From Pseudobacteriovorax sp. (GTDB taxonomy: Bacteria; Bdellovibrionota_B; Oligoflexia; Oligoflexales; Oligoflexaceae), in assembly GCA_050293845.1 (NCBI GenBank), contig JBNKNM010000122.1:1-15625 (forward strand): a DNA stretch of 15,625 nucleotides. Reading direction: 5' to 3'. The notes below the pieces were generated by a model, which was not told the DNA's origin, searched no databases, and was given only the letters and a program-made list of their open reading frames with translations. Of this stretch, positions 1 through 15,243 are shown piece by piece (position 1 is the first letter of the stretch; each line of letters starts with the position of its first letter). The position numbers and the translations under genes were made by a program.

Positions 1-142
1 TCACATGATTTACTTCGAAGATTTTGATCAACTCGTTATTAGAGTTGAGGCAACTATGCAATATTTTAGTGAGCGGGCTGATGATGTAATGAAAGTTTTC
101 GGGAAGTTTAAGAAATTGGAAGCCGCTTCTGCAAAGGCTTAA
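1..142 (+). CDS. 3' end of a probable IS630-family transposase (partial, runs in from the window edge)
   Basis: Frame starting at base 2 reads HMIYFEDFDQLVIRVEATMQYFSERADDVMKVFGKFKKLEAASAKA* (TAA 140-142). This resembles the H-x-x-YF-x-x-F-x-x-L helical C-terminal tail of IS630 transposases. A TA junction about 28 bp later truncates the neighbouring gene. Confidence 0.6.
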   Translation, partial: HMIYFEDFDQLVIRVEATMQYFSERADDVMKVFGKFKKLEAASAKA

Positions 143-171
143 AACCCAAAAAAATTATCTGGATTACTATA
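1..171 (+). mobile_element. Right end of a probable IS630-family insertion sequence (end ...ATCTGGATTACTA at 169, target TA at 170-171)
   Basis: A transposase-like tail is followed by a short non-coding end that abuts a TA dinucleotide lying inside a Leu codon of the LolA-like gene. IS630 elements duplicate TA. The left end is outside the window, so the IR pair cannot be confirmed. Confidence 0.55.
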
Positions 172-562
172 GTTCCTTTTCTAGCGTAGCATTATAATCT
201 CCATGCCATCTCATACGGCTAATGTCACCGTTTGAGGCTTGACCAGAAATTTTTTGATTTAAAGATACTCTTAAGGAACGATTTATATTTGGTACATATG
301 CCCACATATTTTCTTCGATCATCAGAAAATTCTTTCCCACATCACGTCGTGGTTTTAACGTTTTAATAAGGCTTCTATCTTTACCACCAATAGAAATTTC
401 AAAACGATTATGACTACCATCTGATGACTGTACACTTACTTCCATTCGATATGTATGCGAGGGGTTTCTGATTTCATCAGCTTTCATGAGAATTGTATCC
501 GCATCAATGGCAAAGACATTACTTGCGAATAAAAATGTCATAATGATAATTCGATACTTCAT
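167..562 (-). pseudogene. Outer membrane lipoprotein-sorting protein (LolA-like family), N-terminal half, truncated by insertion
   Basis: Signal peptide MKYRIIIMTFLFASNVFA, family-like motifs ILMKADEIRNP, DVGKNFLMIEENMWAYVPNINRSLRVS and GQASNGDISR, and RBS AAGGA upstream. It is only 131 aa, whereas such proteins are typically about twice as long. The TAG stop is supplied by the IS end (167-169). Confidence 0.75.
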
Positions 563-591
563 GCTGGATTCCTTTTTAATTATATATCCAC

Positions 592-645
592 TGCTGGAAT
601 AGGCTAAACGTTAGATTAACTAACGTTTAACCCTAGTATCCAGCA
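592..645. repeat. Long imperfect inverted repeat (hairpin) in the PKS / LolA-like intergenic region
   Basis: Perfect 10-bp arms TAAACGTTAG (605-614) / CTAACGTTTA (620-629) with a 5-nt loop, extended by TAGG/CCTA (600-603/632-635) and TGCTGGA/TCCAGCA (592-598/639-645). Confidence 0.75.
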
Positions 646-686
646 CGCTTCACTAAATCCACCAAAGGTGAATGCAGAGCCTAATA

Positions 687-3600
687 TTAGCCAACACTGG
701 CGATAGTTTTATCAACAATTATCTTGTTCAGTGTCTTCATAAGTTTTTCAGGTAAAGGCATTTGAGTGACATTACCCTTTTTGTCACTGTTACACCAAAT
801 TGCTTTATGCTCACCAAATGCTAATTTTTCATCTGGCCCAATTGGATTCACTTTATAAAATTCAAAGTACAATCCTAAACCTCCATCGTATAATTCGGAT
901 AAGGACATACTCACTCTGATTTCGTCAAATGGCATAGCCTCGCGGAGGTGCTTTATCGTGCAATCCTTGCATCGGAATTCTCCCTGCTCTCCTACTCCTT
1001 GAAAATATTCTGGAATAATGCTTTGTAAGTAGTGATCCCTTGTTTTACCCATCCATATAGAGTAGTTTCCAAAATACAAATTTCCTACTAAATTGGCATC
1101 AAACAAGCTAGTTTCAAAAGTTTTTTCCTTAAGAACTATCTTATTGACTGGTCCTGTAGGGCCTTTGAATATACGAGTGCCAGGAGTAAGATTTTTTAAC
1201 GGTTCGGGTGCAGGAATATATGAGTCTTGATCGTCATTTTGAGCAACCATACTATTGATAAATTCACGGTAATAGTCCGGAAATTTTGCAGGCTTCACAA
1301 TTCCATGTCCTAAAATCTCCACCCATGTAAACCCCATTTTTCCTGTAGCAATACGCTCTTCAATTCCACTTTCACCTAATGAGATCCAATCAAAGTTCAA
1401 GGTGACAGTTGACTCATAAGCTCCACTGATTTTTCCACACCACATGCGGCCCTGCACGATACGATCTCGATTACGACACTGCCCCAACACCTCAATGGAA
1501 GACCAATTCGTTACTAAACCCCATTTTCCAGTTTCTGTAAGTTTACGGATACGATCTAGTACGGGAACTGAGGAAAGTTCTCGGGCTGAGCCCATCCAGT
1601 TAAAAAAGTGACTGAAATATATTGAACGGCTTAAGTTCGAAAATGACTTAAAATCGGGGATAAAACTGTTAACAAAAACCGATTGCCCTTGTGGGCCATG
1701 AGGCTCAGCATTTATTTTAAGAACTTTTGATAGCTCCAGATATGGCTTAAGAATTTGGTTATTTTCATCAGGTATCAAATGGTACTCCTTGGTCATAGAT
1801 GGCGGTTCACGGTAGTCGTTTACTAATGTATAAACACGATGGTCGCCATTACTAACTAGCATACTGGATATATGAACATTGCGATCCTTATCATCATTCC
1901 AAAAAAAGTCGATATGACGATCATCTAGGCGTTTGAATTTGATACTGCTATCTTTAGGTTCTATATTTAGTTCTCTTAACACCTTAGTCATACCGATGAA
2001 TCGATCATGTAGAAAAGGATCTTTACTACCCATAGCCTCAAAATTGGAGATGGCAGACTTAATTAATTCACTATCTATGGATTCTGATATAGCACTGTGA
2101 TTAACTGATAGATGACAGGGTAAAATCTTGCTGAAGGATGCATGAACAAGTCGGTCTTTTGTTGTTGAAGATATTGACAAGTAAATGCATTTTCCGCCAA
2201 GATCCAGAATATGGGAGCCGTCGGATAACTCTATTGTTTTTAAGTTCTCAACTTCATTTTCTGATAAAGATAGTCTTTGCGACAATGTGCTCCACAAAGA
2301 AACAATATCTTCTTTAGGTCCAACGTAAGTTGATGCTTGGTTGGAACCAAGGTTATATCGATTGTTATGAGCCTCGAAATTCATAAACGTCTGCTTTTGT
2401 TTGTGAATTAATTCAATGGCTCTGGGGTTAGTTTCGATACGTTCAATAAACTGTAATATGTAATCTTCCATAATTTCCAGCACTACTCCTCTGGAGTTGA
2501 GAACTTTGATAGTTGCTGCAAAGCTGGTTTCATCGATCCTCTGAACATCGGTTATGGCCATTCTTTTAAGAGTACTTTTTTCTAAAGAAGCTGGAGTGAC
2601 TTGAAGATTCGCAATACGAATCGGTAAACACTGGTTTTTGGGAATAATTAACTGTGCTGATTGTAAAAGAGCATCGCGATAGTAAGGGTCTCCTAGTATA
2701 GTCGTCATGCCAAGTTTGTCACGATATTCTGCACGAAAAATAGCCATACCTTCGTTTTCATCATCGGATTCAAGTTTATAGACTTCTTTTATACGTTGAA
2801 AACTTTTACCTTGAAATAGAATAGGACCGTAAAGATCAACTTGCGGATCAATACCCAATGGGCAAAGGGAGTTGTCAAATCCTAAGTAATTATCAATGGT
2901 TGGTGAATAAAGTACAAATTGCGCTGAAAAGTGATCCTTCTTATAACCGGTTTTTGCACAGCGTATTCCAGCTTTTACAATTAAATGTCCACACTTTGTT
3001 TTATGATCTTGTACTTCGGCATAAATTTCAATTTGGTCCCCATGTTGTCCTACAGTAATTGGATTATCAAGGAAGATATTTTCAATATTGACCCCGCCTA
3101 TATCCTCGATACCAAGGGTATAGCAGACTGCCTGTGCCATAGCTTCTAACCCAAAAACAGTTGGAAAAAGGTACGTACCCTTATAGTTGTGATCGTATAG
3201 GTACGTATCTGTGCTAGGATTAAGGGTGACTCGTGATATTACTTCTAGATCTTTATGGAATGTAATCACCTCATCGATAAAACGGAGTTTTTTGATATTC
3301 GGTAATTCAACTCCAGACATACCCATGCGAGATGTAATAATGTGTTGTTGATCACCGATAGTTGAAAAAATACCATCTAAAAATCTGTCGACACCTTCTT
3401 GAGGAAATATAGGGCTAATTCCCATAGATTCCAGCTTATCAACACTGCCTAATTTTGCTCCCATGCCTAATTCATCCCACACGCTGTAAGCTAGGCTTAC
3501 GGTATGAATATGAGGGAATTGCGACTTTAGCTTTCGTGACAGTCTGTCTAATGATTGATTTGCGAGTGCGTACCAGGCATTTCCGGGCATACCAAGTACT

Positions 3601-6600
3601 CCAATAACAGAAGTAAGGGAAGCAAAGACTTTTATCTTACTTAAATCAATTGAATTTAGAAAATTATCAGCACCTAGTATCTTAACTTTAAATTCAATTT
3701 GAGCTTGCTGAACTGATGATAGGTTGAGAGGAGATGGTTTATTTTGACCGGCCCCATGAATATAGGATGAAATAGTTCCTAATTCAGACTCTATTCTTTT
3801 TATCACTTCTGAAACCGAGTCTTTTTGTAAGATATCACATGAGTAATATTGGGCTTCAATCCCTAACTCTTTGAATTGATCTAGAGTAGCAAAAATTTCC
3901 TGACTTTTTGTACATGGTTTATCAGGTAATACTGTACTGCCGATCAAAGCGAATTTTGAACCTGTTATCTTTGCTAATGCTAATGTACATGCAGCAGTTA
4001 TCCCTTTAGCTCCTCCTGTCACTAAAATTACATCCTGGGAACCAAGCCCGGGATCATATGCTTCATGATCTTCTTTGTTGATGATCTTGAGTTTACTTGT
4101 CAGGCGTTTATTATGACTGTCATACCAAACTAAATTTATATTTTTATTTTGACATATTTCTAACTCTAACTTTTGACTTATAAAACCGTCATCTAAATCT
4201 TGATCAAAGCATAAATATGAGAGTCGTAAATCTGGTCGTTCATGATGTAAACTGCTGACAAATGATTTTAGTTGGATGAGTTGCTCGGATCTTTGTATAA
4301 AATGTATACCATGGCTTTGCGAATCAATAGGAAACTGGCCGATTTTGTGGAGATTTGTTATAAATTCGTCCGTACTAACGGTATCTAGATCAACTAAATC
4401 ATCCACAAAAATAATAATATCACGATATTTAGCTACTTCGATAACTGTATAATCAGTCAAAGATCTGAGGGTAGCTCCTTCGCCATTTTGGGCCCATGAA
4501 TCAACTATTTGCTGCGACCAAGAATTAGAAGTCAGTATGAGTGTAGATTGTAGATTCAGTGACTCAATGGGTGTATCTATACTGATGTCTTCAGCAATAT
4601 ATTCTTCCGTGAACGTGCGTACCCAAGGAGTTCGATTGCGCCTTTTAGTAGTTGAGTTTAAGTGGGGGTGACGAGGTGATGGTTCTAAAGAACTTGATGC
4701 CATCAGTATGGTTGAGGAACATCCCTCAATGGCCTCAACTAATTCCAGAATTGATGCGTTGGAGAAATTTCCAAAGTCAATTTCTCCAGCTCTTTCAAGC
4801 TTCATAGCAATGAGAGATACTAATTCATTTGCCTTGATAGAATCCATATTAAGGTCATCAAGAAGTCTCATATTTATGCTTATTGTGTCTTTTTCGAATC
4901 CAGTGAGTTCATGTACTGTTTTCAGTACGATGCTTAAAAGTGCATCTCCTTCATGACTCACGGGTGACTTAACCTCTTCTAGCTCTAAAGGGACTGTGGA
5001 AATATTCGCAAGTTCCAAAGGAATTTCAGTGCTTGCTATTAAAGACTTATTTATAGATTTAAATTCTTTTTCGCAGGGGTTTTCAATATATAACTTGTCA
5101 CTAGGATCTTCGAAAGCTTTTACAAATCTATCTTGATAAACTTCGTTCCATTTTACCTTACCTCCAGAAACAAACCATTGTAAAATAAGGTTTTTAAATT
5201 CTTCATCGCCATGACGTTCATCTACTGACAAAAGTAACGTCTTTTCAGTTAGATTTTTTTGATTCAAATTAGTTAGAATTTTTCCCGGCCCTACTTCAAT
5301 AATGATTTGATGATCTTGTGAAATTTTTTGTATGGCTTCCTTATAATGAACTCTCCCTAACATTTGTTTCTCTAAATATTCACCGAAAGGATGTTCGTCA
5401 AGTTGACGAAGTAAAAAGGAAGAGAAAAATTTTATATTACCTTTGCTAAATTTTTTATTTTTAAGGTATGCGGCTAGGCGTTTGCTGGCATGGTTCATGT
5501 AATTTGAGTGAAAAGCATTGGAAACAGGTATTTCTTGTACATTAATTCCTAATTCCTGTCCTAAGCTTACAAGTTTTACAATACCGCTTTTAGATCCTGA
5601 AATTATGGTTTGATCTTCGGCATTTAAGTTAGCAATGACGAGATAATCATCAATTTGATTTATCAACTTTTCAGCTTTGCGTTCGTCGGCTGCAATATAG
5701 GCCATGGAGCCAGAGTCTTCACCCTCTGTTGCCATAAGTTGACCACGCAAAGAGGAAATTTCGATCAGTTCGACAAAGCTTATTTTTCCTGCAGACCAAA
5801 GAGCAGTAACTTCTCCTAACGAATGTCCGGCTACGGTATCAGCATATATTCCAATTCTCTTTAGTTTTTGTGTCCAGATAGCACTAGCTGTACAAATAGC
5901 TGGTTGCGCTATTTGGGTCTGCTGGGACTGTTTGATAATATGATCCAATGAATACTGGGTCAGACGATGAGGATTATTAATAAAGTATGTTTGTACAATG
6001 GAAATGTTTTCGTCAGCTAGAGTATCTTCAGCTTGCTGCATCAAATCCTGGGCCCATTCATGGCGCAGTACCAATTTTTTTGCCATATTGAGGTGTTGTG
6101 ACCCTTGTCCGGGGTAGACAAAAGCAACGGCACCAAGCTTTGCATGGGAGGATAATGAAAACTCAGCATTACGAATTACTTCCTCTTCCTTTAGCTTGGG
6201 AATTGCATCAAGAAGGAGTTTTAACTTATTTGCAAGATCTGCTGGCTTCCATGCTACCACAGCAGCTTTGATGGGGTCGCGGTGCTGTATCTTACGGCTG
6301 CAATCAACAGCTAAGTCTAGCATTTCACCCCTACTGATGTCTCTGACTACTCTGAGTAGCTTTTGAACTTTTGCTTTCAAATCCATAGTATTGTGAGCTG
6401 ATAAAGGATATACTTCGCAATTATCATAAGTTACCATTAATTTTTCTTCGCATAGTTCAGGCTCAAAAGATTCATCGGGTTGTGGCCCTGAACTCAAGGT
6501 AACATGGGAGTTAATGCCCCCGAACCCCATCGCTGAAACCCCTGCTTTCATAATTGATTTAGGATCACAAGAATTTCCTTCGATAATTGGATATAATTGA

Positions 6601-7889
6601 CTAGCTTCTTTTTTAAACATTTCATGGGGAATTTCACAGCCAGCTAAAGGTGGTAATATGCGACGATTGACAGCCATGACAGCCTTGATCAATGCACCAA
6701 TACCAGCTGCAGCCTTTGTATGTCCTATAATGGTCTTAAGGGATGTTAATCCGATAGAAGGATGATTATTTTCTTTATCCAATGCATCAACTATTCCACC
6801 GATTTCAATGCGATCACCAAGGGGTGTCCCTGTGCCATGCCCTTCAATAAAGTCTAAATCATTAATACTATAATTTGCCATGTTATAAGCTGATTGAATA
6901 GCATGGGATTGTCCCTTCACAGAGGGAGCTGTTAGACCTCCCTTACCATCCGAAGATACACCCCAACCATTGAGTACAGCATAAATTCTATCATTATCTC
7001 TCACGGCATCTTTTAGGCGTTTCAAAAGAAGAAAGCCACAGCCTTCCCCTGGTATAAACCCTGAAGCACGACGATCATATACGCGCATATCTGAATCTGT
7101 TAGTGCTCCTGTTTTGGCAAAACCGATAAGCTCAAAGGTATCGAGACTGATATCGATACCACCAACGAACGCTATATCGAGATCTCCTTGCTTCAATGAT
7201 CTTGCAGCGTTGATTACAGCAAGTAATGATGAAGAACAAGCACCATCGATGGTATAACCACCACCATGTAAATCAAGAAAATTGCAGATTCTACCAGCAA
7301 TAGTATTTGATAAAGCTCCTGCAAGTGTATCCTCAGTTACTTCGGGAAAAACTGATTTAAAAGTATACTCTGTGGTTTTTAGGTAATTTTTAAATGCTTC
7401 ACCAGTTATGCCATGGGCTTTGGCTGATGCCATCATTGCATCTCTAAAAAAGGGCCACCTCATTCTCATAGCGTTGGTTCTAGTCCACTCTCCTGTTAAG
7501 GTATTCCCCAATACTACACCTGTTTGATAATTTTGCAGTGATGTGTGATCGTATCCCGCATCTTTAAGTGCTTTAAGGGCAACGTTGAGAGCCAACCAAT
7601 GGACAATATCGGTTCCTTGATATGTTTTTTGGGGTATTCTATAGGACTGCCAATCAAAATTAAATCCATCTATTACAGCTGCTTCAGTACCGTAAGTCAT
7701 ATCTGGAGACTTACGATCTGAACTGTAATATTTGCTAAGAGGGAGTCTCGAATCTGGTATTCTTCTGAATTGTTGACGTTTACTGAGAATGTTTTCCCAA
7801 AGTTCTAAGGGAGATCTTGCTCCCGGATACCAACATGAAAGCCCTATAATAGCGATTCCATCTTGTTCGTTCCTCATTGTTTTCTCCAT
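687..7889 (-). CDS. Enediyne-type (PKSE-like) iterative type I polyketide synthase: KS-AT-ACP-KR-DH-(degenerate PPTase)-hotdog TE-hotdog TE
   Basis: KS with PKSE-diagnostic stretches GNTLTGEWTRTNAMRMRWP and EDTLAGALSNTIAGRICNFLDLHGGGYTIDGACSSSLL (Cys 7236-7238; His in EGHGTGT 6837-6839 and GHTKAAAG 6720-6722). AT GHSLG (Ser 5820-5822) and VSNAFHS. ACP LLDDLNMDSI (Ser 4839-4841). KR TGGAKGIT with catalytic Tyr at 3570-3572. DH YLYDHNYKGTYLFPTVFGLEAMAQ (His 3189-3191), DLYGPILFQG and LGDPYYRDA. C-terminal NLVGNLYFGNYSIWMGKTRD thioesterase motif. The true start is probably the ATG at 7877, which has GGAG 6 nt upstream. Confidence 0.93.
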   Translation of the reverse strand: MEKTMRNEQDGIAIIGLSCWYPGARSPLELWENILSKRQQFRRIPDSRLPLSKYYSSDRKSPDMTYGTEAAVIDGFNFDWQSYRIPQKTYQGTDIVHWLALNVALKALKDAGYDHTSLQNYQTGVVLGNTLTGEWTRTNAMRMRWPFFRDAMMASAKAHGITGEAFKNYLKTTEYTFKSVFPEVTEDTLAGALSNTIAGRICNFLDLHGGGYTIDGACSSSLLAVINAARSLKQGDLDIAFVGGIDISLDTFELIGFAKTGALTDSDMRVYDRRASGFIPGEGCGFLLLKRLKDAVRDNDRIYAVLNGWGVSSDGKGGLTAPSVKGQSHAIQSAYNMANYSINDLDFIEGHGTGTPLGDRIEIGGIVDALDKENNHPSIGLTSLKTIIGHTKAAAGIGALIKAVMAVNRRILPPLAGCEIPHEMFKKEASQLYPIIEGNSCDPKSIMKAGVSAMGFGGINSHVTLSSGPQPDESFEPELCEEKLMVTYDNCEVYPLSAHNTMDLKAKVQKLLRVVRDISRGEMLDLAVDCSRKIQHRDPIKAAVVAWKPADLANKLKLLLDAIPKLKEEEVIRNAEFSLSSHAKLGAVAFVYPGQGSQHLNMAKKLVLRHEWAQDLMQQAEDTLADENISIVQTYFINNPHRLTQYSLDHIIKQSQQTQIAQPAICTASAIWTQKLKRIGIYADTVAGHSLGEVTALWSAGKISFVELIEISSLRGQLMATEGEDSGSMAYIAADERKAEKLINQIDDYLVIANLNAEDQTIISGSKSGIVKLVSLGQELGINVQEIPVSNAFHSNYMNHASKRLAAYLKNKKFSKGNIKFFSSFLLRQLDEHPFGEYLEKQMLGRVHYKEAIQKISQDHQIIIEVGPGKILTNLNQKNLTEKTLLLSVDERHGDEEFKNLILQWFVSGGKVKWNEVYQDRFVKAFEDPSDKLYIENPCEKEFKSINKSLIASTEIPLELANISTVPLELEEVKSPVSHEGDALLSIVLKTVHELTGFEKDTISINMRLLDDLNMDSIKANELVSLIAMKLERAGEIDFGNFSNASILELVEAIEGCSSTILMASSSLEPSPRHPHLNSTTKRRNRTPWVRTFTEEYIAEDISIDTPIESLNLQSTLILTSNSWSQQIVDSWAQNGEGATLRSLTDYTVIEVAKYRDIIIFVDDLVDLDTVSTDEFITNLHKIGQFPIDSQSHGIHFIQRSEQLIQLKSFVSSLHHERPDLRLSYLCFDQDLDDGFISQKLELEICQNKNINLVWYDSHNKRLTSKLKIINKEDHEAYDPGLGSQDVILVTGGAKGITAACTLALAKITGSKFALIGSTVLPDKPCTKSQEIFATLDQFKELGIEAQYYSCDILQKDSVSEVIKRIESELGTISSYIHGAGQNKPSPLNLSSVQQAQIEFKVKILGADNFLNSIDLSKIKVFASLTSVIGVLGMPGNAWYALANQSLDRLSRKLKSQFPHIHTVSLAYSVWDELGMGAKLGSVDKLESMGISPIFPQEGVDRFLDGIFSTIGDQQHIITSRMGMSGVELPNIKKLRFIDEVITFHKDLEVISRVTLNPSTDTYLYDHNYKGTYLFPTVFGLEAMAQAVCYTLGIEDIGGVNIENIFLDNPITVGQHGDQIEIYAEVQDHKTKCGHLIVKAGIRCAKTGYKKDHFSAQFVLYSPTIDNYLGFDNSLCPLGIDPQVDLYGPILFQGKSFQRIKEVYKLESDDENEGMAIFRAEYRDKLGMTTILGDPYYRDALLQSAQLIIPKNQCLPIRIANLQVTPASLEKSTLKRMAITDVQRIDETSFAATIKVLNSRGVVLEIMEDYILQFIERIETNPRAIELIHKQKQTFMNFEAHNNRYNLGSNQASTYVGPKEDIVSLWSTLSQRLSLSENEVENLKTIELSDGSHILDLGGKCIYLSISSTTKDRLVHASFSKILPCHLSVNHSAISESIDSELIKSAISNFEAMGSKDPFLHDRFIGMTKVLRELNIEPKDSSIKFKRLDDRHIDFFWNDDKDRNVHISSMLVSNGDHRVYTLVNDYREPPSMTKEYHLIPDENNQILKPYLELSKVLKINAEPHGPQGQSVFVNSFIPDFKSFSNLSRSIYFSHFFNWMGSARELSSVPVLDRIRKLTETGKWGLVTNWSSIEVLGQCRNRDRIVQGRMWCGKISGAYESTVTLNFDWISLGESGIEERIATGKMGFTWVEILGHGIVKPAKFPDYYREFINSMVAQNDDQDSYIPAPEPLKNLTPGTRIFKGPTGPVNKIVLKEKTFETSLFDANLVGNLYFGNYSIWMGKTRDHYLQSIIPEYFQGVGEQGEFRCKDCTIKHLREAMPFDEIRVSMSLSELYDGGLGLYFEFYKVNPIGPDEKLAFGEHKAIWCNSDKKGNVTQMPLPEKLMKTLNKIIVDKTIASVG

Positions 7890-8010
7890 AGATTCGTGTG
7901 CATCGGATACTATTGATTTTTTGCTTTATAGTTGAACATTGATTTTTGATTATAAAAGGTAGATTAAATCCATATGTAACAAGTAGAAAAAATATACCCT
8001 GCTATTACTA

Positions 8011-8027
8011 AGCAAAGTGTTGGCCAA
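8011..8027 (-). promoter_or_regulatory. Candidate sigma54 (-24/-12) promoter for the PKS operon
   Basis: Minus strand reads TTGGCCAACACTTTGCT: GG-N10-GC spacing and a close match to TGGCACG-N4-TTGCW, about 120 bp upstream of the PKS start. Confidence 0.6.
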
Positions 8028-8341
8028 TACTAGTTGAAACATTGTTATGGAACAATATTCAGAAATAATGAGTAAATTTAGAAAGGATGAAAAGATATGT
8101 TAATGGAGAGAGGTGCATAGCTTTTGAAGGCCTCTAGATACTGCTAGTTTACTGACTATCAAAAAAATGTAATCAATGCAGTGATATGTGCTGTTTGATG
8201 GATAAATAACGCAATTACTTAGTTCTAAGTTTTGTCTTGTGAACTCCTATCTAGCTGAATTTATGGAATAAAATCTATTTGTCATTATGTTTATCGTACT
8301 AAGTTTAAGAAAAAAAGTTAAGAATTATCCTTTTCTTTCCA

Positions 8342-8358
8342 TTGGTGTGATCTTTGCT
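8342..8358 (+). promoter_or_regulatory. Candidate sigma54 (-24/-12) promoter for the ABC transporter operon
   Basis: TTGGTGTGATCTTTGCT: GG at 8344-8345 and GC at 8356-8357 (N10 spacing), perfect TTGCT -12 box, about 70 bp upstream of the ATG at 8428. Confidence 0.5.
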
Positions 8359-8427
8359 TTATTGCAGTATCCAGCAAGAGATCAATATAAGAATAAATTG
8401 ATCGTCTATTTCCAATAAGGGGTAAAA

Positions 8428-9141
8428 ATGAAGACTCTCTTTGAGGTTGAACATCTCAAATTTTCTTATGGAGATATTAATTATAAACAGAGTATTTTCG
8501 ATGATCTAAGATTTAGTATAAAACAGGGAGAGTTTTTAGGTCTAACAGGACCCTCAGGATCTGGAAAATCAACACTTCTTAATATTCTTGGACTTATTGA
8601 GGATATTCAAGATGGAGATATTAAGTTTGCAGGTGAATCTCTTAGGCAGGCTTCTGAGAGCAGAAAAAATTATTTGCGCTTACATACCTTTGGTTTTATT
8701 TTCCAGGATTTTCACCTAATCAATACATTATCTGTTCTTGAAAATGTTCAATTTTTCCCTTCTCTACAGGGTTTAAATGTATACCAATCACGTATTCGTT
8801 CTCTCTTAGCCCTGCGTCGGGTAGGGCTACTCAATTTATATAAAAAAAAACCTTTAGAGCTTTCCGGTGGCCAACGCCAAAGAGTAGCCATTGCTAGAGC
8901 TCTTGCGAAACGGCCTCAAATAATCATCGCCGACGAACCCACGGCTAGTTTAGATCAGGAAAGCAGTGCTACTGTTATGAATATCCTTCAATACTTAAAT
9001 GAAGTTATGGGCGTGACTATCATTGTCGCTAGCCATGATAATATTATCAACCATTATGTACAAAGAACCATTCATTTAGTTGATGGTGTGATTACTGACA
9101 AAGGAGAAATGAGTCATGCAACTGAAATTTTCGCTACTTAA
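8428..9141 (+). CDS. ABC transporter ATP-binding protein (LolD/MacB-like)
   Basis: Walker A GPSGSGKST, FGFIFQDFHLI Q-loop, signature LSGGQRQRVAIARAL, Walker B IIIADEPT, H-loop ASHD; RBS AAGGGG. Confidence 0.93.
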   Translation: MKTLFEVEHLKFSYGDINYKQSIFDDLRFSIKQGEFLGLTGPSGSGKSTLLNILGLIEDIQDGDIKFAGESLRQASESRKNYLRLHTFGFIFQDFHLINTLSVLENVQFFPSLQGLNVYQSRIRSLLALRRVGLLNLYKKKPLELSGGQRQRVAIARALAKRPQIIIADEPTASLDQESSATVMNILQYLNEVMGVTIIVASHDNIINHYVQRTIHLVDGVITDKGEMSHATEIFAT

Positions 9142-10321
9142 TGTCAGTAGAAATCGTCGTCGTTCCTTAGTATGCATTATTAGTATTGCAGTCAGCATCT
9201 TTGGACTTTATTTTCTCGATGGATTTTTTACTGGTTTAATTTCTATGCATCGTGAAAACTCTATTCATTCGCGACATGGACATGGACAAGTTTTTAAAAG
9301 AAATTACTACGACCAACCTCACTCCAAACCATGGGAGCACTGGATTGATAATTCTCATAATGTTATGAAAGTATTGCTAGAACATCCAAATGTTTTACAA
9401 GTATTTCCACGAGTACAATTTTTTTCCTTATTGACGAATGGTGACCTTTCAGTAGCAGGACGTGGGATTGGAGTCCAAGGTGAGCAAGAAGAACATTTTT
9501 TTAATAAAATGAATATTGTATCTGGCACTGTTCTTTCTGATCATAAAGATGGTATTGTTTTAGGAGTTGGTTTAGCAAAATCTTTAAGTGTTGAAGTAGG
9601 AAATCCCGTTACATTAGTAGGTAACACTATTTATGGATCTATCAATGCACTTGATCTAAAAGTAGTTGGGATCTTTCATATGGGTTTGAAAGAAGCTGAT
9701 GACATGATGTTTCAAATTCAATTAGATCAAGCTCAATTACTCTTAGATACTCAAAAAGTAGAAAGTATTTCACTAGGTAATAGCAGTCACTTGGCTTGGT
9801 CAGATGTAGAGAGCTACGTTGAGTCAAAGTTTCCCACGTTAGAAGCTAGATCAGTGAATGTTCTAGATAAAATATGGGCTGAAAATGGTGAGAATTTTCT
9901 CACAGCACTTCTTAATATCTTTCGATTGGTATTTTTAGGTGTTATCTCTTTATCCATCTACAATAGCTCGGCTAACACAGTTCTAGAAAGAACAAAAGAG
10001 CTGGGAATGATGAGAGCTAATGGTCTCAGTGGACATCTTTTGGTTAAATTGATGACCTTAGAAAATGCTTTTTTAGCTATTTGCGGTGGCATTTTGGGTG
10101 TGCTTTTGACATGGGTTGTAACTTCGATATTGACTGATGGCGTTCCTATGCCACCTACTCCGGGTACCAATCGTGAACTCCCTGTAGCTATTGAGCTCAA
10201 GTGGTTTGATGGTGTACTAGCTTTAAGCCTTGGGATGGGAGTGTCTATACTCGCTAGCTTGAGTGCGTCTTTGCAGGTTCTGTTTCTACCTATATCCAAG
10301 GCTTTACGAAACCTTAGTTAA
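9116..10321 (+). CDS. ABC transporter permease (FtsX/LolC-E/MacB-like)
   Basis: N-terminal NVSRNRRRSL followed by TM1, a large periplasmic domain, the ERTKELGMMRANG motif and three C-terminal TM segments. Overlaps the ATPase gene by 26 bp and has RBS AAGGAG. Confidence 0.9.
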   Translation: MQLKFSLLNVSRNRRRSLVCIISIAVSIFGLYFLDGFFTGLISMHRENSIHSRHGHGQVFKRNYYDQPHSKPWEHWIDNSHNVMKVLLEHPNVLQVFPRVQFFSLLTNGDLSVAGRGIGVQGEQEEHFFNKMNIVSGTVLSDHKDGIVLGVGLAKSLSVEVGNPVTLVGNTIYGSINALDLKVVGIFHMGLKEADDMMFQIQLDQAQLLLDTQKVESISLGNSSHLAWSDVESYVESKFPTLEARSVNVLDKIWAENGENFLTALLNIFRLVFLGVISLSIYNSSANTVLERTKELGMMRANGLSGHLLVKLMTLENAFLAICGGILGVLLTWVVTSILTDGVPMPPTPGTNRELPVAIELKWFDGVLALSLGMGVSILASLSASLQVLFLPISKALRNLS

Positions 10322-10654
10322 TTTCTACGAGAATTAACGTTTTCAACATTCTTAAAACCATAGCCTAATAAGTACATAATTGCAGTATGATACACAATAT
10401 TCGTAGGTAACCGCCTCATAAACCCACGACTATTTTCCGCATAAAACTTGCAATATCCTTCCGCCTTTATCAAAAGGAGGATATATAATGAGTTCAAAAT
10501 ACAACGAGGAAAAAGTAATTTCAGGCTTTGATAATAGTAATAATATCGTTACTCAGTAAATTGAAAAAGCATCAAAAATTTGCCCGATTCCAGCAATGAT
10601 TAAGAAAGAGGTTCGTTGATTGTTAGTCTAGTAGGGAAAAATTAGATTGAAAAG

Positions 10655-11017
10655 TTAGAAACAAGGGAGAAGGTAATGAGGTATTGCTAGAAATACGACA
10701 ATGGATTCCCTTCTTTTGAACTTGGATGACTCAAATGCTATAAATACTAGAGAAAGCATAGGAATAATTGTTAAGATCCGGCCTAATGTAATTTTCTCAG
10801 GCAACTGAGTTAAATTCAAAAAAGGAGTGACTACTAGCGATACAAAAGCAATGAATCTCAGTATCGATTTAGGTTTTTCAAGTAACAACAGAAGGTATAA
10901 CGGCTGTGCTATAATAACAAGATCTGTATAAGCGTTTATTAGACTCTGTTCTGAGTTACTTGCCGCCGAAGCAACTTGTGGTATAGTGAAAAGGAGAAAA
11001 TTTAAAAGGAGATTCAT
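10655..11017 (-). CDS. Hypothetical membrane protein, probably the 5' part of a frameshifted gene extending toward ~10318
   Basis: Signal-like N-terminus and several hydrophobic segments. Downstream minus-strand frames continue with hydrophobic peptide fragments broken by stops and frameshifts, up to a TAA at 10318-10320. Confidence 0.4.
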   Translation of the reverse strand: MNLLLNFLLFTIPQVASAASNSEQSLINAYTDLVIIAQPLYLLLLLEKPKSILRFIAFVSLVVTPFLNLTQLPEKITLGRILTIIPMLSLVFIAFESSKFKRRESIVVFLAIPHYLLPCF

Positions 11018-11621
11018 CTTATAAATGCCAGAAAATATTGATAATCTAAGCTGTTTTAATTTGAAACTCGCCGTACAGACTTACTTTATGCTTTTAGCTT
11101 TTTTTCAAGATTTCGAAAGGAGATTTTCCAGAGTGAGCACCATGAGGCCTATATATGTTATAGCCTAAATCCTCAGAAAATTTTTCCAAAACCCCTTTCA
11201 ATCCATTTTTCACCAATGGCTACAAGCATTTATAGCGACTATCCCTGTGGCTAAAAATTGAAATTTCATCTATAACGACATGTCACTAGGTGGTAGTTGT
11301 AATGGGAGAAGATAGTGATGAAATTAGGCCTATCAGAACTTATTTCCGCACATCTTCCCCAAGGTAAGCTGAATTCCTCAAAGCATCACTAAGAGAAGTT
11401 TAAAACCATGGTCATGGGCTTTATTTCTGATACAGTTTGTTTGGATAACTGGGAGCGTCTCCGATGGATAAGGGACTCAATAAGTATCCTATGTGGCAAA
11501 AAACTTTCAGGGATTTTTGCCTTGGTTTACTGTCGAATATTAGCAAATAAGCGCCACCCAATATTATCGTAAAGTGTACCACATATAAAAATGCTTAACA
11601 TTCATTTCTGCCCTTCGCACT

Positions 11622-11765
11622 TTAACTTGTGTCCAGATCTTCGTATACATGTGGATTCATATCCGGGGTGCAGAAGAAACGACATCCGCATTCTTTATCA
11701 GTAAGTGCAAATCCAAGGAATGACCATCCTAAAAGTGTATAAAGAAAAGTTGAATTTAAGCTCAT
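11622..11765 (-). CDS. Small 47-aa ORF (signal-like N-terminus, CGCRFFC), possibly the 5' fragment of a decayed gene
   Basis: MSLNSTFLYTLLGWSFLGFALTDKECGCRFFCTPDMNPHVYEDLDTS*, with GGAG (11772-11775) 6 nt upstream of the ATG. Below the ORF-track length cutoff. Confidence 0.3.
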   Translation of the reverse strand: MSLNSTFLYTLLGWSFLGFALTDKECGCRFFCTPDMNPHVYEDLDTS

Positions 11766-12066
11766 ACCAAACTCCGTATTAAATGTTGTGCTCAGCTGTT
11801 TTAAGGATTTATTTAGGTGGATATATACTGTTTTTGATTTTGATTAAATTAGGTGTACTCGAGTTGAGAGCGTTGGAGTTAACCTTCCATAAAAGAAGAA
11901 ACTTACTGAGAAGTACTTCTCAGCAAGTCGAGACGTTAGAAAGCCTAAGGATAGAAGATATGGAAGGCGATTTTTAGTTACATACCCAGATGTCACATCC
12001 GCGATCATCAATTTTGGGGTAGCAGCCAGCATCGTTAGGAAGAAGTATTACAGGGCGTACGGGTAT

Positions 12067-12390
12067 CTATCCGCCACAGTAGTGAGTGAAACTAACAGAG
12101 GTTGTTGCATCTTCTTGACTAAGGATTTTAAATATTCTTGCCAGGCGACTCATGTTTCTAAGATCCGCGCTAATACAGAGTTGAACCTCTCCTTCAAGCC
12201 CCCATTGATCTTCCTGGACTGAAAATACGTTTTTAAAGTCTTTTTCGATTTCTAAAATCTCAGTAACTTCATCATAAAGTTTATGGTTGATACCGGCTCC
12301 GAAGCTCGAAAAATCTATAGTTACGTGCTTTGGAGCTGCAAAAAGACTTGAAGACAAAAGTAGAGTGAATAATGTAGTAATAATTTTCAT
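12067..12390 (-). CDS. Small secreted hypothetical protein
   Basis: Clear Sec signal MKIITTLFTLLLSSSLFA-A, RBS GAGGG, two Cys in the mature part, motifs DFSSFGAGIN and WGLEGEVQLC. Confidence 0.7.
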   Translation of the reverse strand: MKIITTLFTLLLSSSLFAAPKHVTIDFSSFGAGINHKLYDEVTEILEIEKDFKNVFSVQEDQWGLEGEVQLCISADLRNMSRLARIFKILSQEDATTSVSFTHYCGG

Positions 12391-12480
12391 AGTACCCTCA
12401 ATAGAAGTGAATGAACTCTATTTTTCTTCTAATCTTTGTCAGCTAAGGTATAAAGGAAATAGAATTATCTGCAGCTGAAA

Positions 12481-12501
12481 ATGTACTCCAATGGAGTACA
12501 C
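12481..12501. repeat. Left copy of 21-bp direct repeat ATGTACTCCAATGGAGTACAC (palindromic; target-site duplication)
   Basis: Identical to 14053-14073 and directly abuts the IS terminal IR. Internal palindrome TGTACTCCA-A-TGGAGTACA. Confidence 0.9.
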
Positions 12502-14052
12502 CTTAAGTTTGGCCAAAAATTAAGCGCAGAATTTCTTAGCAAGGGACTCAAATGATGTATTTATTGTAAAGCTTCCGAGTTCCACTGTGCCAAGTACATC
12601 AAGTTCTTTCCGCAATACCTGCTGAAAATCTGCAAAAGATGGCCGTTTTCCATTCTTATTTCTCCAGCGTGGTAGCTTATTGAAGCTTTTGTGATTTCGA
12701 TTCTCGGAAAAGTGGATAACGCCGGCAAGCATAAGAGCACCATAGGAGGCGACTATAAAGGCCGGCACTTTTTCAATGCTTTTTTGCGACCAGTTCTGTT
12801 GTTTTCCTAGAGACATTTGCTGTTTTTCCTCTTTGAAGTTCACTTCGATCTGCCAGCGATCAAAATACTTTTGTATTAGAATTACAGCATCTAGTTCAAA
12901 ATCGTCAGTTAAGAGATATGCAGATTCACGGTACTCTAGCTTGCCCTTTCTGTTTCTCCTGTATGGGGTAGGAGCGACTACAATTAACCTTAACGGTTTC
13001 TTTTTAGTACTATGCTTCTGAAACACTGGGCCAATTTCCTTAAAACGAATCCCTCGCCAACTCCCGGCATAATGAATTTTAGTAGATTTGTACCCTTTTG
13101 CTTTATCTTGTCTAAACTCTTTTGCTGTGAAACTCTTTTGAGAATAAAACCGTCTGCCACCGGACTCAGCCTTGAGGAACAATCTAGCGTTTTTTCTGGT
13201 TCTACCTATAAGCGAAACTCCTTCTATCCCATGATTGAAGGTGGTTCTGTTGATATAAGACCCGTCGACTACAGCCAGTAACTTCTTAGACGCCAAGCCC
13301 AATGAGTTAAGCTCGTTCCGCATAAATCTTACTAACTTGACGAATGCTGTTGATGCGTTTGACTTCTTGCAAAGTTCTTTATACTGATCATGCGCTTCCT
13401 GCGGAGCACTTTTCCTGGGTTTCTTATGTTTGGGGAGCTTTTCTAACTGCACAGGAATAGCTCTGCAAGGTTTACAATCTTGTCTGTTGTATAAGGGAAG
13501 TAAAATACTTGCTTGGATAAAACGAAATCCCCAAGCAAAGTTTACACGCCAAGGAGGTGAGTGAAAATCTCTTTGCCAAGAAGCACCTAAGAATTTTTTA
13601 CCAGTCTTTTTTACCAAAGTATCGTCCCAAGCTATTGCGATAATATCCTCATCAAGGAAAATCGTAGAGTTTTTCAAATTAGCCCTAAATAGATCACAGG
13701 GCCTCCACACGGTTCTGCTGAAAAACCGATAGGCAGAAGTCCAGTCAAAATGCTCAAGCCCAACTGACATTAGCGCCCTTGAAATTGTTTTTTTCCCTAT
13801 AGTGATCAAAATACTGATAGCCAATAGTTTGGAGCGTTCTCTTGAAACTTTTGAAGGAAATGACTTGTCCCAAGAAGAAATCACCGATAAAAATGTAGTG
13901 AGAAGACCTTCCATAGCAATTCCTTTGCTAGACACTAAGTCATCGTTTTGTTTTGTATTTTTTTGGCGATTAATATTTGAATGAAATTGATTGGAAGGTC
14001 AACTCAGTTTAATTACTGAGTCTATTCGAATATAAAAATGACCAAACTTAAG
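12502..14052 (-). mobile_element. Insertion sequence, IS4/IS701 superfamily, 1551 bp
   Basis: Terminal IRs CTTAAGTTTGG(C)CA at 12502-12515 and TG(A)CCAAACTTAAG at 14039-14052. A single transposase fills the element, which is flanked by perfect 21-bp direct repeats. Confidence 0.88.
12520..13935 (-). CDS. DDE transposase (IS4/IS701-like)
   Basis: WDDTLVKKTGKK (first D), VVDGSY (second D), and YFDRWQIEVNFKEEK matching the Y-x2-R-x3-E-x6-K motif. The start may be the ATG at 13914 (AAAGGA upstream) rather than the GTG at 13935. Confidence 0.9.
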   Translation of the reverse strand: MSSKGIAMEGLLTTFLSVISSWDKSFPSKVSRERSKLLAISILITIGKKTISRALMSVGLEHFDWTSAYRFFSRTVWRPCDLFRANLKNSTIFLDEDIIAIAWDDTLVKKTGKKFLGASWQRDFHSPPWRVNFAWGFRFIQASILLPLYNRQDCKPCRAIPVQLEKLPKHKKPRKSAPQEAHDQYKELCKKSNASTAFVKLVRFMRNELNSLGLASKKLLAVVDGSYINRTTFNHGIEGVSLIGRTRKNARLFLKAESGGRRFYSQKSFTAKEFRQDKAKGYKSTKIHYAGSWRGIRFKEIGPVFQKHSTKKKPLRLIVVAPTPYRRNRKGKLEYRESAYLLTDDFELDAVILIQKYFDRWQIEVNFKEEKQQMSLGKQQNWSQKSIEKVPAFIVASYGALMLAGVIHFSENRNHKSFNKLPRWRNKNGKRPSFADFQQVLRKELDVLGTVELGSFTINTSFESLAKKFCA

Positions 14053-14073
14053 ATGTACTCCAATGGAGTACAC
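14053..14073. repeat. Right copy of 21-bp direct repeat ATGTACTCCAATGGAGTACAC
   Basis: Exact match to 12481-12501. Confidence 0.9.
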
Positions 14074-14214: not shown

Positions 14215-15243
14215 ATGAGCTTTGGTAGTGACAATCATTCTGGTGTCCATCCGAAAATCCTAGAGTCGTTGAGCTTTTGTAATGATGGCTATCAGTCATC
14301 TTATGGAGCGGATAAACAAACTGCCATTTTTGAAAGTAAGATGAAGGAGATATTTGGCCCCCAATCCAACTCTTTCATTGTATTCACTGGAACCGGAGCC
14401 AATGTGCTGTCTATAAAAGCGACATGCTCATCCTTTCATAGTGTCATATGTACCGATATAGCTCATCTAGCCTGTGATGAAAGTGGGGCACCCGAAAATT
14501 ACGCGGGTTGTAAGGTAATACCGATTCCACATCGGAATGGTAAAATTACAGTAGATCAGATCAAAAGCAAGTTAGATCGTCGTGGTGATATCCATAGCTC
14601 ACAGCCCCGCCTTATTTCAATTACGCAATGCACGGAAGTAGGGACTGTTTACACACCACAGGAAATTGAGGCTATTGCCACCTTTGCACATGATAATCAG
14701 CTACTGCTTCACATGGATGGTGCAAGAATTAGCAATGCAGCAGTAGCTCTAAACTGCAGTTGGGCATCAATTTCGAGGGATTGTGGTGTAGATATCTTAA
14801 GTTTAGGTGGCACTAAAAATGGAATGTTAATGGGTGAAGCTGTAGTCATTATGAATCAGAATCTAGCCCCTGAGATGCCTTGGATTCGAAAGCAGGCGAT
14901 GCAGTTGGCATCGAAAATGCGCTACATTTCTTGCCAATTTAATACTTATCTTGAGGATGAATTATGGCGACAAAACGGACAGAACGCCAATGCTATGGCT
15001 AGCTACTTAGCAGAGGAAGCTGGTACTGTAAAAGGTATAGATATTGTTTATCCAGTTGAAGCTAACGAGGTCTTTGCCAAAGTTCCTCATAAGGTTATTA
15101 AGAACCTGTCTGATAAATGGAAATTTTATGTTTGGGAAGAAGATCAGAACATCGTTCGTTGGGTAACAAGTTGGGAAACTCAGCGTGAAACGGTCGACTC
15201 TTTTCTTAGTGATTTAAGGACTACTTGTTCCTTATTAAAGTAG
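14215..15243 (+). CDS. ltaE: Low-specificity L-threonine aldolase (PLP-dependent, beta-eliminating lyase family)
   Basis: SFGSDN, TGTGAN, AHLACDESGAPE, TEVGTVYT, LHMDGARISNA and DILSLGGTKNG (PLP Lys); RBS GAGGA. Confidence 0.9.
   Translation: MSFGSDNHSGVHPKILESLSFCNDGYQSSYGADKQTAIFESKMKEIFGPQSNSFIVFTGTGANVLSIKATCSSFHSVICTDIAHLACDESGAPENYAGCKVIPIPHRNGKITVDQIKSKLDRRGDIHSSQPRLISITQCTEVGTVYTPQEIEAIATFAHDNQLLLHMDGARISNAAVALNCSWASISRDCGVDILSLGGTKNGMLMGEAVVIMNQNLAPEMPWIRKQAMQLASKMRYISCQFNTYLEDELWRQNGQNANAMASYLAEEAGTVKGIDIVYPVEANEVFAKVPHKVIKNLSDKWKFYVWEEDQNIVRWVTSWETQRETVDSFLSDLRTTCSLLK

Follow-up and report, generated by a model that had tools for sequence, protein, structure and literature searches.

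Gene content of the locus

The window, i.e., the whole stretch of 15,625 nucleotides that was analysed, represents an entire contig (C122) of a Pseudobacteriovorax genome (family Oligoflexaceae; GCA_050293845.1). It carries a gene cluster in which an iterative polyketide synthase (PKS) of type I and of the kind known from enediyne clusters (PKSE) is accompanied by genes for a LolA-like carrier and an ATP-binding cassette (ABC) transporter. In the following, G000 denotes this genome, the other G-numbers denote further genomes, C-numbers contigs of G000 and L-numbers loci. The assembly of G000 comprises 6.68 Mb in 741 contigs, is 96% complete and features a G+C content of 41%.

Within the window, the cluster consists of a fragment of a LolA_like gene, the gene of a PKS of 2400 amino acids (aa), a divergent spacer and the genes of an ABC ATPase and a MacB-type permease (Table 1), and it runs on into contig C91. 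The gene order proposed in the initial annotation, with the LolA-like gene and the PKS gene reading away from a 538-bp divergent region in one direction and the ATPase and permease genes in the other, agrees with the open reading frames (ORFs). The LolA-like gene was assigned to the right family (LolA_like in Pfam), but it is not a whole gene, as the ORF comprises only the N-terminal ~130 aa and is split by an insertion sequence (IS). The description of the system as minimal has to be given up, since the cluster also includes the gene of an outer-membrane barrel, situated on C91 beyond the window. The 538-bp spacer features 32 promoter-like sites compared to 36.1 expected from shuffled sequences, which is not above chance, and a terminator scan at the cluster likewise revealed nothing above chance.

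Table 1. Features of the cluster in the window, sorted by position
Feature	Position	Strand	Basis
Insertion-sequence end	1..172	+	repeat shared by contig ends; TA at junction
LolA_like periplasmic carrier, N-terminal ~130 aa	173..562 (ORF 167-562)	-	PF17131 E 3.7e-14, profile 1-78 of 184
Iterative type I PKS, PKSE kind, fused tandem thioesterases	687..7889	-	2400 aa; Pfam domains, motifs
Hotdog domain 2 (aa ~2239-2376), E10-type thioesterase	762..1175	-	PDB matches, SgcE10 tblastn
Hotdog domain 1 (aa ~2059-2200)	1290..1715	-	motif aa 2085; structure model
Insert of ~210 aa (aa 1830-2040), between DH and hotdogs	1770..2402	-	alignment of relatives
DH domain (aa 1548-1817)	2439..3248	-	PF21089, PF14765; HxxxGxxxxP aa 1567
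KR domain (aa 1288-1472)	3474..4028	-	PF08659 E 1.7e-21
ACP (aa ~988-1054, Ser1017 in MDS)	4728..4928	-	weak PP-binding match, E 0.0022; motif
AT domain (aa 590-882)	5244..6122	-	PF00698 E 3e-35; GHSLG aa 688
KS domain (aa 11-418)	6636..7859	-	PF00109 E 3e-53, PF02801 E 7e-31
Divergent intergenic region, PKS / ABC genes	7890..8427	.	538 bp, from ORF coordinates
ABC ATPase, LolD/MacB/DevA kind	8428..9141	+	PF00005 E 2e-32
MacB-type (FtsX) permease, periplasmic core domain	9116..10321	+	PF12704 MacB_PCD, PF02687 FtsX

Polyketide synthase and tandem thioesterase

The PKS features the order ketosynthase (KS), acyltransferase (AT), acyl carrier protein (ACP), ketoreductase (KR) and dehydratase (DH), followed by an insert of ~210 aa and two hotdog thioesterases (TE) of the E10 type; Pfam recognized ketoacyl-synt, Ketoacyl-synt_C, Acyl_transf_1, KR, PS-DH and a C-terminal 4HBT_2 domain. 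All catalytic motifs are intact, namely the Cys-His-His set of the KS (DGACSS at aa 215, HGTGT at 351 and GHTK at 389), GHSLG of the AT (688), MDS of the ACP (1015), the glycine motif GGAKGI of the KR (1292) and HNYKGTYLFP of the DH (1567). In tblastn searches, the protein aligned with SgcE, the PKSE of the enediyne C-1027, with 35% identity in a stretch of 1039 aa and 31% in one of 546 aa. When the PKS was compared by tblastn with 72,556 plasmid records, 1591 gave a match. The highest-ranking one was a PKS-TE of Gloeothece verrucosa PCC 7822 in split form (38% identity, 89% cover), followed among the matches listed by 24 actinomycete records with 31-34% identity. Two of these 24 were opened and both turned out to be enediyne clusters, i.e., C-1027 of Streptomyces globisporus (H14) and a cluster of Streptomyces sp. 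NBC_00726 (H2), in which a PKSE and then a thioesterase (E10) are encoded collinearly with the fusion in G000.

A tree of the KS-AT region, made as a quick search with 46 rows including two outgroups from G000 itself (other PKS/PfaA-like loci, on long branches), united the TE-fused synthases in one clade of 40 rows with a Shimodaira-Hasegawa-like approximate likelihood ratio (SH-aLRT) support of 100. Three actinomycete PKSEs were placed beside this clade, one row was unresolved, and the Oligoflexaceae formed a subclade of the TE-fused synthases (15 rows, SH-aLRT 100). The other PKS/PfaA-like loci of G000 (C23:32027-40179 and C50:9450-12089) are 24-31% identical to the PKS of the window or to SgcE. 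On the plasmid of Gloeothece verrucosa PCC 7822 (L042), the relative is divided into a KS-AT and a KR-DH-TE protein, and three tryptophan-7-halogenase-like genes, a carotenoid oxygenase gene and DevB/DevC are located downstream; this locus may represent a halogenated polyene pathway.

The designation of the enzyme as PKSE-TE-TE in the initial annotation is supported by two core motifs, by matches to E10-type structures and by a confident double-hotdog model. The motif N-x5-YF-x5-WxG-x2-R occurs at aa 2085 and again at aa 2266, with Tyr2276 of the second hotdog being replaced by Phe2095 in the first; across 57 sequences, the motif residues Asn, Tyr and Arg of the second hotdog show little or no variation. 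Searched against the PDB, the last ~130 aa matched DynE7 (8e-12), the 'ACP-polyene thioesterase' 4i4j (4.5e-10) and CalE7 (1.2e-8), with an ordinary 4-hydroxybenzoyl-CoA thioesterase reaching just E 0.005; moreover, SgcE10 matched window positions 804-1100 by tblastn with E 4.6e-10. The last 360 aa were modelled by AlphaFold from a 57-row alignment as a double hotdog (pLDDT 91, pTM 0.90), for which Foldseek found tandem-hotdog acyl-ACP thioesterases as best matches (E 9e-13 to 1e-10, TM by target 0.56-0.77). Thus, the E10-type hotdog thioesterase of the enediyne cassette is present, here in a fused and tandem form.

The insert between the DH and the hotdogs is found in G000, G002 and G005 and is missing from seven other aligned sequences (six family genomes). 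Its position is that of the phosphopantetheinyl transferase (PPTase) in canonical PKSEs and in relatives of ~2600 aa, such as P0033 (2605 aa) with an ACPS-type PPTase at aa 2139-2199. For aa 1781-2400, AlphaFold2 produced a poor model (pLDDT 55) from an alignment of 10 rows, and no fold was assigned to the insert on this basis.

Transport genes

The LolA-like fragment in the window shares 78% identity with aa 1-130 of the 230-aa orthologue of G002, and C91:81-374 corresponds to aa 133-230 of the same protein with 83% identity. This G002 orthologue matches PF17131 over the full profile (E 4.8e-38), whereby the feature of a LolA-fold carrier is present; among NCBIfam models, only a weak match to LolA3 below its cut-off was obtained. 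The LolA-like proteins possess a signal peptide but lack a lipobox cysteine and should therefore be soluble in the periplasm.

The initial annotation described the ABC transporter as a LolCDE-like exporter, which stands with regard to its Lol-like logic but not as an assignment to LolCDE, for there is one permease only and the scores are far below the cut-offs for LolC/E and LolD. Among NCBIfam models, the ATPase scored best with LolD (196.2 bits compared to a cut-off of 307.75) and with DevA (192 bits compared to 295.8) and is therefore not an equivalog of either; models of bacteriocin and darobactin export were also among its best matches. The permease, encoded by the sole permease gene of the cluster and 81% identical to its G002 orthologue, reached 74.9 bits with the lolCE model compared to a cut-off of 362.45. 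Together, an FtsX permease with MacB periplasmic core domain and its cognate ATPase feature the characteristics of MacB-type (type VII) ABC transporters. Among the cluster genes scanned, no membrane-fusion adaptor of the MacA/DevB kind was found in G000 and G002, nor was a TolC-like duct detected. Likewise, the cluster contains no LolB-like gene; instead, the gene of a DUF1302-type barrel stands next to the carrier gene.

The barrel protein of G002 exceeds the Pfam cut-off for DUF1302 (30.1 versus 23.2 bits), and the G000 copy stays below it with 18 bits. In the Atlas, the G000 protein is situated among DUF1302 clusters, with 22 of 30 matches carrying the DUF1302 set (score 0.98). Signal peptides were found in nine of ten orthologues, the nine being those with a plausibly called start, and the C-terminal residue is aromatic in eight of ten and Leu in the copies of G000 and G005.

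As the carrier gene of G000 is split, complex formation was predicted with the periplasmic domain of the G002 permease and the G002 LolA-like protein. The predicted complex reached an ipSAE of 0.65, the best control 0.00; the applied mark was attained in 116 of 157 solved complexes compared to 2 of 215 mismatched pairs. The pLDDT of the partners was 81 or higher, and the runs had 90% or more of their contacts in common. In the predicted interface, an invariant loop of the permease (aa 174-188) lies against aa 71-107 of the LolA-like protein (G002 numbering), an arrangement which we take to resemble the solved contact between the LolC hook and LolA.

The assumption that LolA-like and ABC genes travel as one unit holds within this genome, in which three further modules of LolA_like and MacB-type ABC genes, all of them without a PKS, are encoded on C306, C112 and C104 (L037-L039). 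The C104 module encodes its LolA_like domain and permease as one fusion protein and is located beside genes of an AMP-ligase, a pyridoxal phosphate (PLP)-dependent decarboxylase and a MatE transporter. Each of the three modules includes an unassigned signal-peptide protein of ~380-410 aa, two of which end in Phe and one in Leu; these outer-membrane-protein-like proteins showed no detectable homology to the DUF1302-like family.

Conservation of the cluster

Relatives of the PKS were searched in 41 genomes with its C-terminal 570 aa and found in 13 of them including G000, i.e., in 11 of the 21 other family genomes and as one weak match outside the family. The closest protein is that of Pseudobacteriovorax antillogorgiicola with 62% identity. 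The surroundings were compared in nine of the 11 matching family genomes, with G015 and G021 being left out due to short contigs. In eight of these nine relatives, the LolA-like and the DUF1302-like gene directly follow the 3' end of the PKS gene, and the ATPase-permease pair is located divergently upstream in seven, the exceptions being G004, whose contig ends at the PKS start, and G017, which lacks the pair. The linkage of synthase and transporter genes, on which the initial annotation had made its proposal dependent, is thus conserved. Moreover, the arrangement is kept across several genera at 39-62% PKS identity, with the LolA-like gene starting ~10-125 bp from the PKS stop codon.

A contig scan with peptide patterns revealed only Oligoflexaceae, including Oligoflexus tunisiensis Shr3 and several metagenome-assembled genomes; these patterns are very specific and the scan has no bearing on the wider distribution. 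Regarding the latter, a profile of the tandem hotdog matched 920 representatives at E<=0.001 and 348 clusters (50% identity) at E<=1e-30, and the best 150 of these proteins include 49 full-length fusions of at least 2000 aa. A metagenome scan with the tandem-hotdog alignment resulted in 80 loci. Only three of them (L056, L070 and L071) carry the LolA-like and DUF1302-like genes after the PKS, and these three belong to the four loci with 52-63% identity. At the 17 loci of ~40% identity scanned for neighbours, only one neighbour recurs, namely a Ser/Thr kinase with AAA_16 domain encoded divergently upstream of the synthase (seven of 17: L120, L110, L100, L108, L097, L088 and L083). The synthases next to this kinase are ~2600-aa relatives, for which it may act as a dedicated regulator. 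Besides, a FadL, MMPL or MacB-type permease gene was present nearby at single loci of this group.

Insertion sequence, continuation on C91 and flanking genes

The carrier gene is cut at window position 172/173, and its rest is located at C91:81-374 behind the other end of a repeat. Eighteen contigs terminate in the sequence of window positions 1-172 and 11 in the opposite IS end (C91 1-78); no contig carries both, and the body of the element is unassembled. Bases 2-142 encode in frame 2 a 46-aa ORF tail with stop codon, presumably of a transposase, for which tblastn and NCBIfam revealed neither a full-length copy nor a family. A TA is present at both junctions, which we take to be a hallmark of IS630/Tc1-type elements; the label IS630, which goes back to this TA, is tentative.

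In run X1, the word depth of the IS-end contig was 365 compared to 9 for the gene. The insertion is polymorphic, as window position 170 is joined directly to C91 sequence by short contigs of two further runs from the same study; the depth of this uninterrupted allele versus the gene was 2.8 versus 5.1 (X2) and 3.1 versus 3.2 (X3), the evidence consisting of low-depth contigs from one study. In the run that is possibly the source of the assembly, only IS junctions were found among the matches listed.

Following the rest of the carrier gene, C91 encodes the 432-aa DUF1302-like protein and subsequently proteins of 504, 214, 511 and 325 aa, the last one being TPR-like. NCBIfam and Pfam gave weak signals of a diheme 'GEGP' domain/PSCyt3 for the 504-aa protein and of DUF1501 for the 511-aa protein, and sequence searches of both against the PDB revealed nothing usable. 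This block of four genes (C91:1836-6504, L036) is kept downstream of the cluster in several relatives, with the 502-, 251- and 513-aa genes being kept in four or five of them. A paralogous four-gene block without PKS is situated on C75 (L040 2060-6783) and ends in a TPR/response-regulator protein. Further downstream, a fatty-acid desaturase is encoded on the opposite strand (C91:6540-7583; PF00487, DesB-like below cut-off), which is not found at that place in G002.

On the other side, synteny with the relatives stops at the permease gene. The subsequent ~2.2 kb (window 10322-12480) contain just short minus-strand ORFs of 141, 73, 67 and 116 aa without family match. These are followed by a complete IS701-family element (12482-14072) flanked by inverted repeats of 34 nt with 91% complementarity, with its transposase gene at 12520-13935 on the minus strand (NCBIfam IS701_3, E 1e-40). 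Outside the conserved cluster, positions 14215-15243 encode a PLP-dependent beta-eliminating lyase or threonine-aldolase-like protein (PF01212, E 2e-46), which scored below the cut-off of the GntG family model.

Search for enediyne cassette genes

On the C-1027 plasmid, the proteins encoded beside SgcE were assigned by position, E2 and E3 representing DUF1702, E4 CRTAC1/UnbV_ASPIC and E5 an RnfD-like protein. SgcE and SgcE10 matched the window by tblastn, but no match to SgcE2, E3, E4, E5, E6, E8 or E11 was obtained at E<=1e-3 in G000. The family of E2 and E3 (PF08012) is present in none of 22 Oligoflexaceae genomes including G000, with two matches in each of two enediyne plasmids as positive control. 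Profile matches to the E4-type family PF07593 (UnbV_ASPIC) comprise two proteins of G000, encoded on C131 and C21 and thus away from the PKS. The whole-genome search by hidden Markov models recommended in the initial annotation was thereby realized for E3 and E4, whereas E5 was sought by tblastn alone, as no profile search was made for it.

On C131 (L137 157-7339), the FG-GAP/UnbV_ASPIC protein is accompanied by a cytochrome P450, a methyltransferase and a di-haem cytochrome c peroxidase apparently split into two ORFs; this gene group is unrelated to the PKS cluster, and no PKS, DUF1702 or E5-like protein was found in it. As the initial annotation had noted, no E3/E4/E5-like ORFs flank the cluster in the window. 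They do not appear past the split carrier gene either, where C91 holds the rest of the LolA-like gene, the DUF1302-type barrel gene and the four conserved genes. Due to the fragmentation of the genome into 741 contigs, the absence of E3, E4 and E5 means that they were not found and is not absolute. Regarding the synthase itself, KS, AT, ACP, KR and DH of the PKSE architecture are present and a PPTase core was not detected, though P0033 possesses one.

Proposed function and alternative explanations

In our judgement, there is an even chance that the cluster encodes a self-releasing polyene synthase outside of enediyne biosynthesis, whose hydrophobic product is handed from an ABC extractor to the LolA-like carrier and further to the DUF1302 barrel. 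By homology, the PKSE-type synthase would assemble an ACP-bound chain, highly reduced and conjugated, and the fused tandem E10-type thioesterase would release it. PKSE and TE suffice for the formation of 1,3,5,7,9,11,13-pentadecaheptaene, which such pairs from enediyne clusters release and for which, according to the available part of the report, a thioesterase is needed but not a particular one (PMC9992847). The very hydrophobic product would partition into the inner membrane, from which the MacB-type transporter could extract it and hand it over to the soluble LolA_like carrier. The carrier would deliver it to the neighbouring DUF1302-type barrel, and the product might then be inserted into the outer membrane or passed across it. 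Gene linkage, family assignments and the complex prediction suggest these transport steps; both the conjugated-polyene chemistry and the outer-membrane destination are inferred. By analogy with aryl polyenes, the product likely serves as a membrane pigment or antioxidant.

Several observations weigh against this proposal. Pfam revealed nothing relevant to a PPTase core in the insert of the G000 synthase at E<=5, and jackhmmer seeded with the PPTase region of P0033 matches only aa 1978-2120 of the G000 protein, i.e., the tail of the region. The self-priming PPTase domain of canonical PKSEs thus seems to be lost or decayed in the synthases of the Oligoflexaceae, so that a PPTase from another locus would have to act on the ACP. 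In contrast to aryl-polyene clusters, the conserved genes showed neither an acyltransferase nor any other enzyme for anchoring. The carrier gene is split by the IS in this assembly, and the transport route may be broken in that strain. The complex prediction was derived from G002 orthologues, and its positive outcome may reflect a likeness to the solved LolA-LolC complex, which is not proof. Furthermore, the same-genus genome G001 has no such PKS, and in G017 the PKS occurs without the transport genes, having a ferrochelatase gene upstream and unrelated genes downstream. Other genes likewise follow the PKS in L055, the fourth metagenomic locus at 52-63% identity. Among 65 neighbour proteins scanned at the 17 loci of ~40% identity, there was no LolA_like, DUF1302, DUF1702 or UnbV protein; accordingly, the synthase does not in general need this exporter. 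The module of LolA_like and ABC genes is moreover generic, with three more copies in G000 occurring without a PKS, and it could handle other cargo.

An alternative explanation, which we regard as unlikely, considers the PKS product as a secreted bioactive compound, e.g., a toxin, signal or predation factor, with the ABC transporter, the LolA-like protein and the DUF1302 barrel serving as efflux or self-protection route to the outside of the cell and not into the outer membrane. The gene linkage would be equally expected in this case, and MacB-type transporters include exporters, as also reflected by the bacteriocin and darobactin models among the best matches of the ATPase. In addition, the AmeABCD system, which consists of DUF1302, LolA-superfamily and resistance-nodulation-division (RND) proteins, is described as an efflux system in the accessible portion of its report (PMC6394551). 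Nevertheless, the cluster genes scanned include neither a TolC-like duct nor a membrane-fusion protein, a soluble LolA-like carrier fits lipid delivery better than efflux via a continuous duct, and the conserved set showed no tailoring genes by which a polyene would become more than a hydrocarbon.

Somewhat less credit still is given to the possibility that the synteny does not indicate a shared function, the module handling other envelope cargo and the PKS product staying inside the cell or leaving it unaided. Such independence would account for the three modules of G000 away from any PKS, for the synthases without module in G017, L055 and the 17 distant loci scanned, and for the PKS-free paralogue on C75 of the conserved downstream four-gene block. 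It is less easily reconciled with the divergent arrangement and the short distance between PKS stop and LolA-like gene, both kept across several genera despite PKS identities of just 39-62%. Besides, the C104 module also adjoins genes of small-molecule biosynthesis, which suggests that such modules serve local pathways. Finally, a cryptic enediyne cluster with E3, E4 and E5 elsewhere or too diverged, to which the PKSE-like synthase, the E10-like thioesterase and two UnbV_ASPIC proteins in the genome would conform, is extremely improbable given that DUF1702 was found in none of the 22 family genomes with a working control, that tblastn gave no matches to SgcE2, E3, E4, E5, E6, E8 or E11, and that the C131 UnbV_ASPIC protein has a di-haem peroxidase, a methyltransferase and a P450 as neighbours and no PKS.

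Significance

Returning to the proposed polyene synthase with its export route, a more specific version can be put forward only tentatively and is in our estimation rather doubtful: the cluster would be a dedicated envelope machine for a hydrocarbon, in which a bare conjugated polyene is moved from the inner to the outer membrane by the ABC transporter, the LolA_like carrier and the short DUF1302 barrel. If true, this would provide a first defined cargo for the widespread modules of LolA_like, MacB-type and barrel proteins, four of which are encoded in this genome, and would assign a function to the PKSE-TE-TE family, which comprises hundreds of sequence clusters without known product. So far, work on PKSEs has dealt almost exclusively with their role as initial enzyme in the formation of enediyne antitumour antibiotics, and here the same chemistry, with fused TE, occurs outside of that setting. 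Likewise, LolA_like and DUF1302 modules have only been connected to indirect phenotypes. In a literature search of freely accessible main texts, neither a described product of the PKSE-TE-TE family nor a report joining a PKSE-type synthase with Lol-like or DUF1302 trafficking was found. The combination of both thus appears to be undescribed, with the known parts being the PKSE/E10 polyene chemistry on the one hand and the trafficking of the Lol-like and DUF1302 type on the other hand. The cluster of the Oligoflexaceae offers a testable model of how bacteria may bring a polyene or hydrocarbon that is insoluble in water to their outer membrane. Intact clusters exist in the cultured relatives Oligoflexus tunisiensis Shr3 and Pseudobacteriovorax antillogorgiicola, and a natural IS-disrupted LolA-like allele occurs alongside an intact one.

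Comparison with known systems

With the enediyne PKSE cassette (C-1027), the cluster shares the iterative KS-AT-ACP-KR-DH synthase and the thioesterase of the CalE7/DynE7/SgcE10 type directly after it. In contrast to the cassette, this thioesterase is fused and duplicated, the PPTase core as well as E3/E2, E4 and E5 were not found, and the synthase belongs to a separate clade.

Aryl-polyene (APE) clusters resemble the cluster in that a polyene pathway is packaged with Lol-like trafficking genes. According to the part of the literature available, these are ApeL, a LolA-like chaperone, ApeM, an RND transporter, and ApeN, a LolB-like protein, with a localization of the product in the outer membrane being proposed (PMC8253772). 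APE clusters feature type II fatty acid synthase-like enzymes, an aryl starter and anchoring acyl- and glycosyltransferases of their own, whereas in Pseudobacteriovorax a single type I PKSE-like protein is found without an anchoring enzyme, the RND transporter is replaced by an ABC transporter and the LolB-like protein by a DUF1302 barrel. Compared to the genes named in the accessible text of that report (PMC8253772), neither a type II KS/chain length factor nor an aryl-starter acyl-ACP synthetase nor acyl- or glycosyltransferases were detected among the cluster proteins scanned.

Similarly, the clusters of DUF1302, DUF1329, BNR and RND proteins, i.e., AmeABCD of Castellaniella and PP_0765/0766 of P. 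putida, unite a barrel, a LolA-superfamily carrier and an inner-membrane transporter. In the consulted portions of the reports, AmeABCD is presented as a monoterpene efflux cluster of DUF1302, a LolA-superfamily protein and an RND transporter (PMC6394551), and clusters of this kind are tied to hydrophobic compounds (PMC6394551; bioRxiv 10.1101/2020.07.04.188060). Measured against what these portions describe, the DUF1302 protein is short here (~415-430 aa versus 605 aa in AmeA), the carrier belongs to PF17131 and not to DUF1329, a BNR protein is missing, an ABC transporter takes the place of the RND transporter, and the genes stand beside biosynthetic and not catabolic ones. Correspondingly, no DUF1329, BNR protein or RND transporter was detected among the cluster proteins scanned.

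MacAB-TolC is matched in the architecture of the permease (MacB_PCD and FtsX) and in the family of the ATPase, but ATPase and permease are separate proteins here and the cluster genes scanned did not reveal a MacA-type adaptor. Regarding LolCDE-LolA-LolB, the cluster differs by its single permease gene, the PF17131 carrier and a beta-barrel in place of LolB. Nevertheless, it shares with this system an ABC extractor with MacB-type periplasmic domain, a soluble carrier of the LolA fold, the lack of a membrane-fusion protein and a permease loop that is predicted to dock into the carrier.

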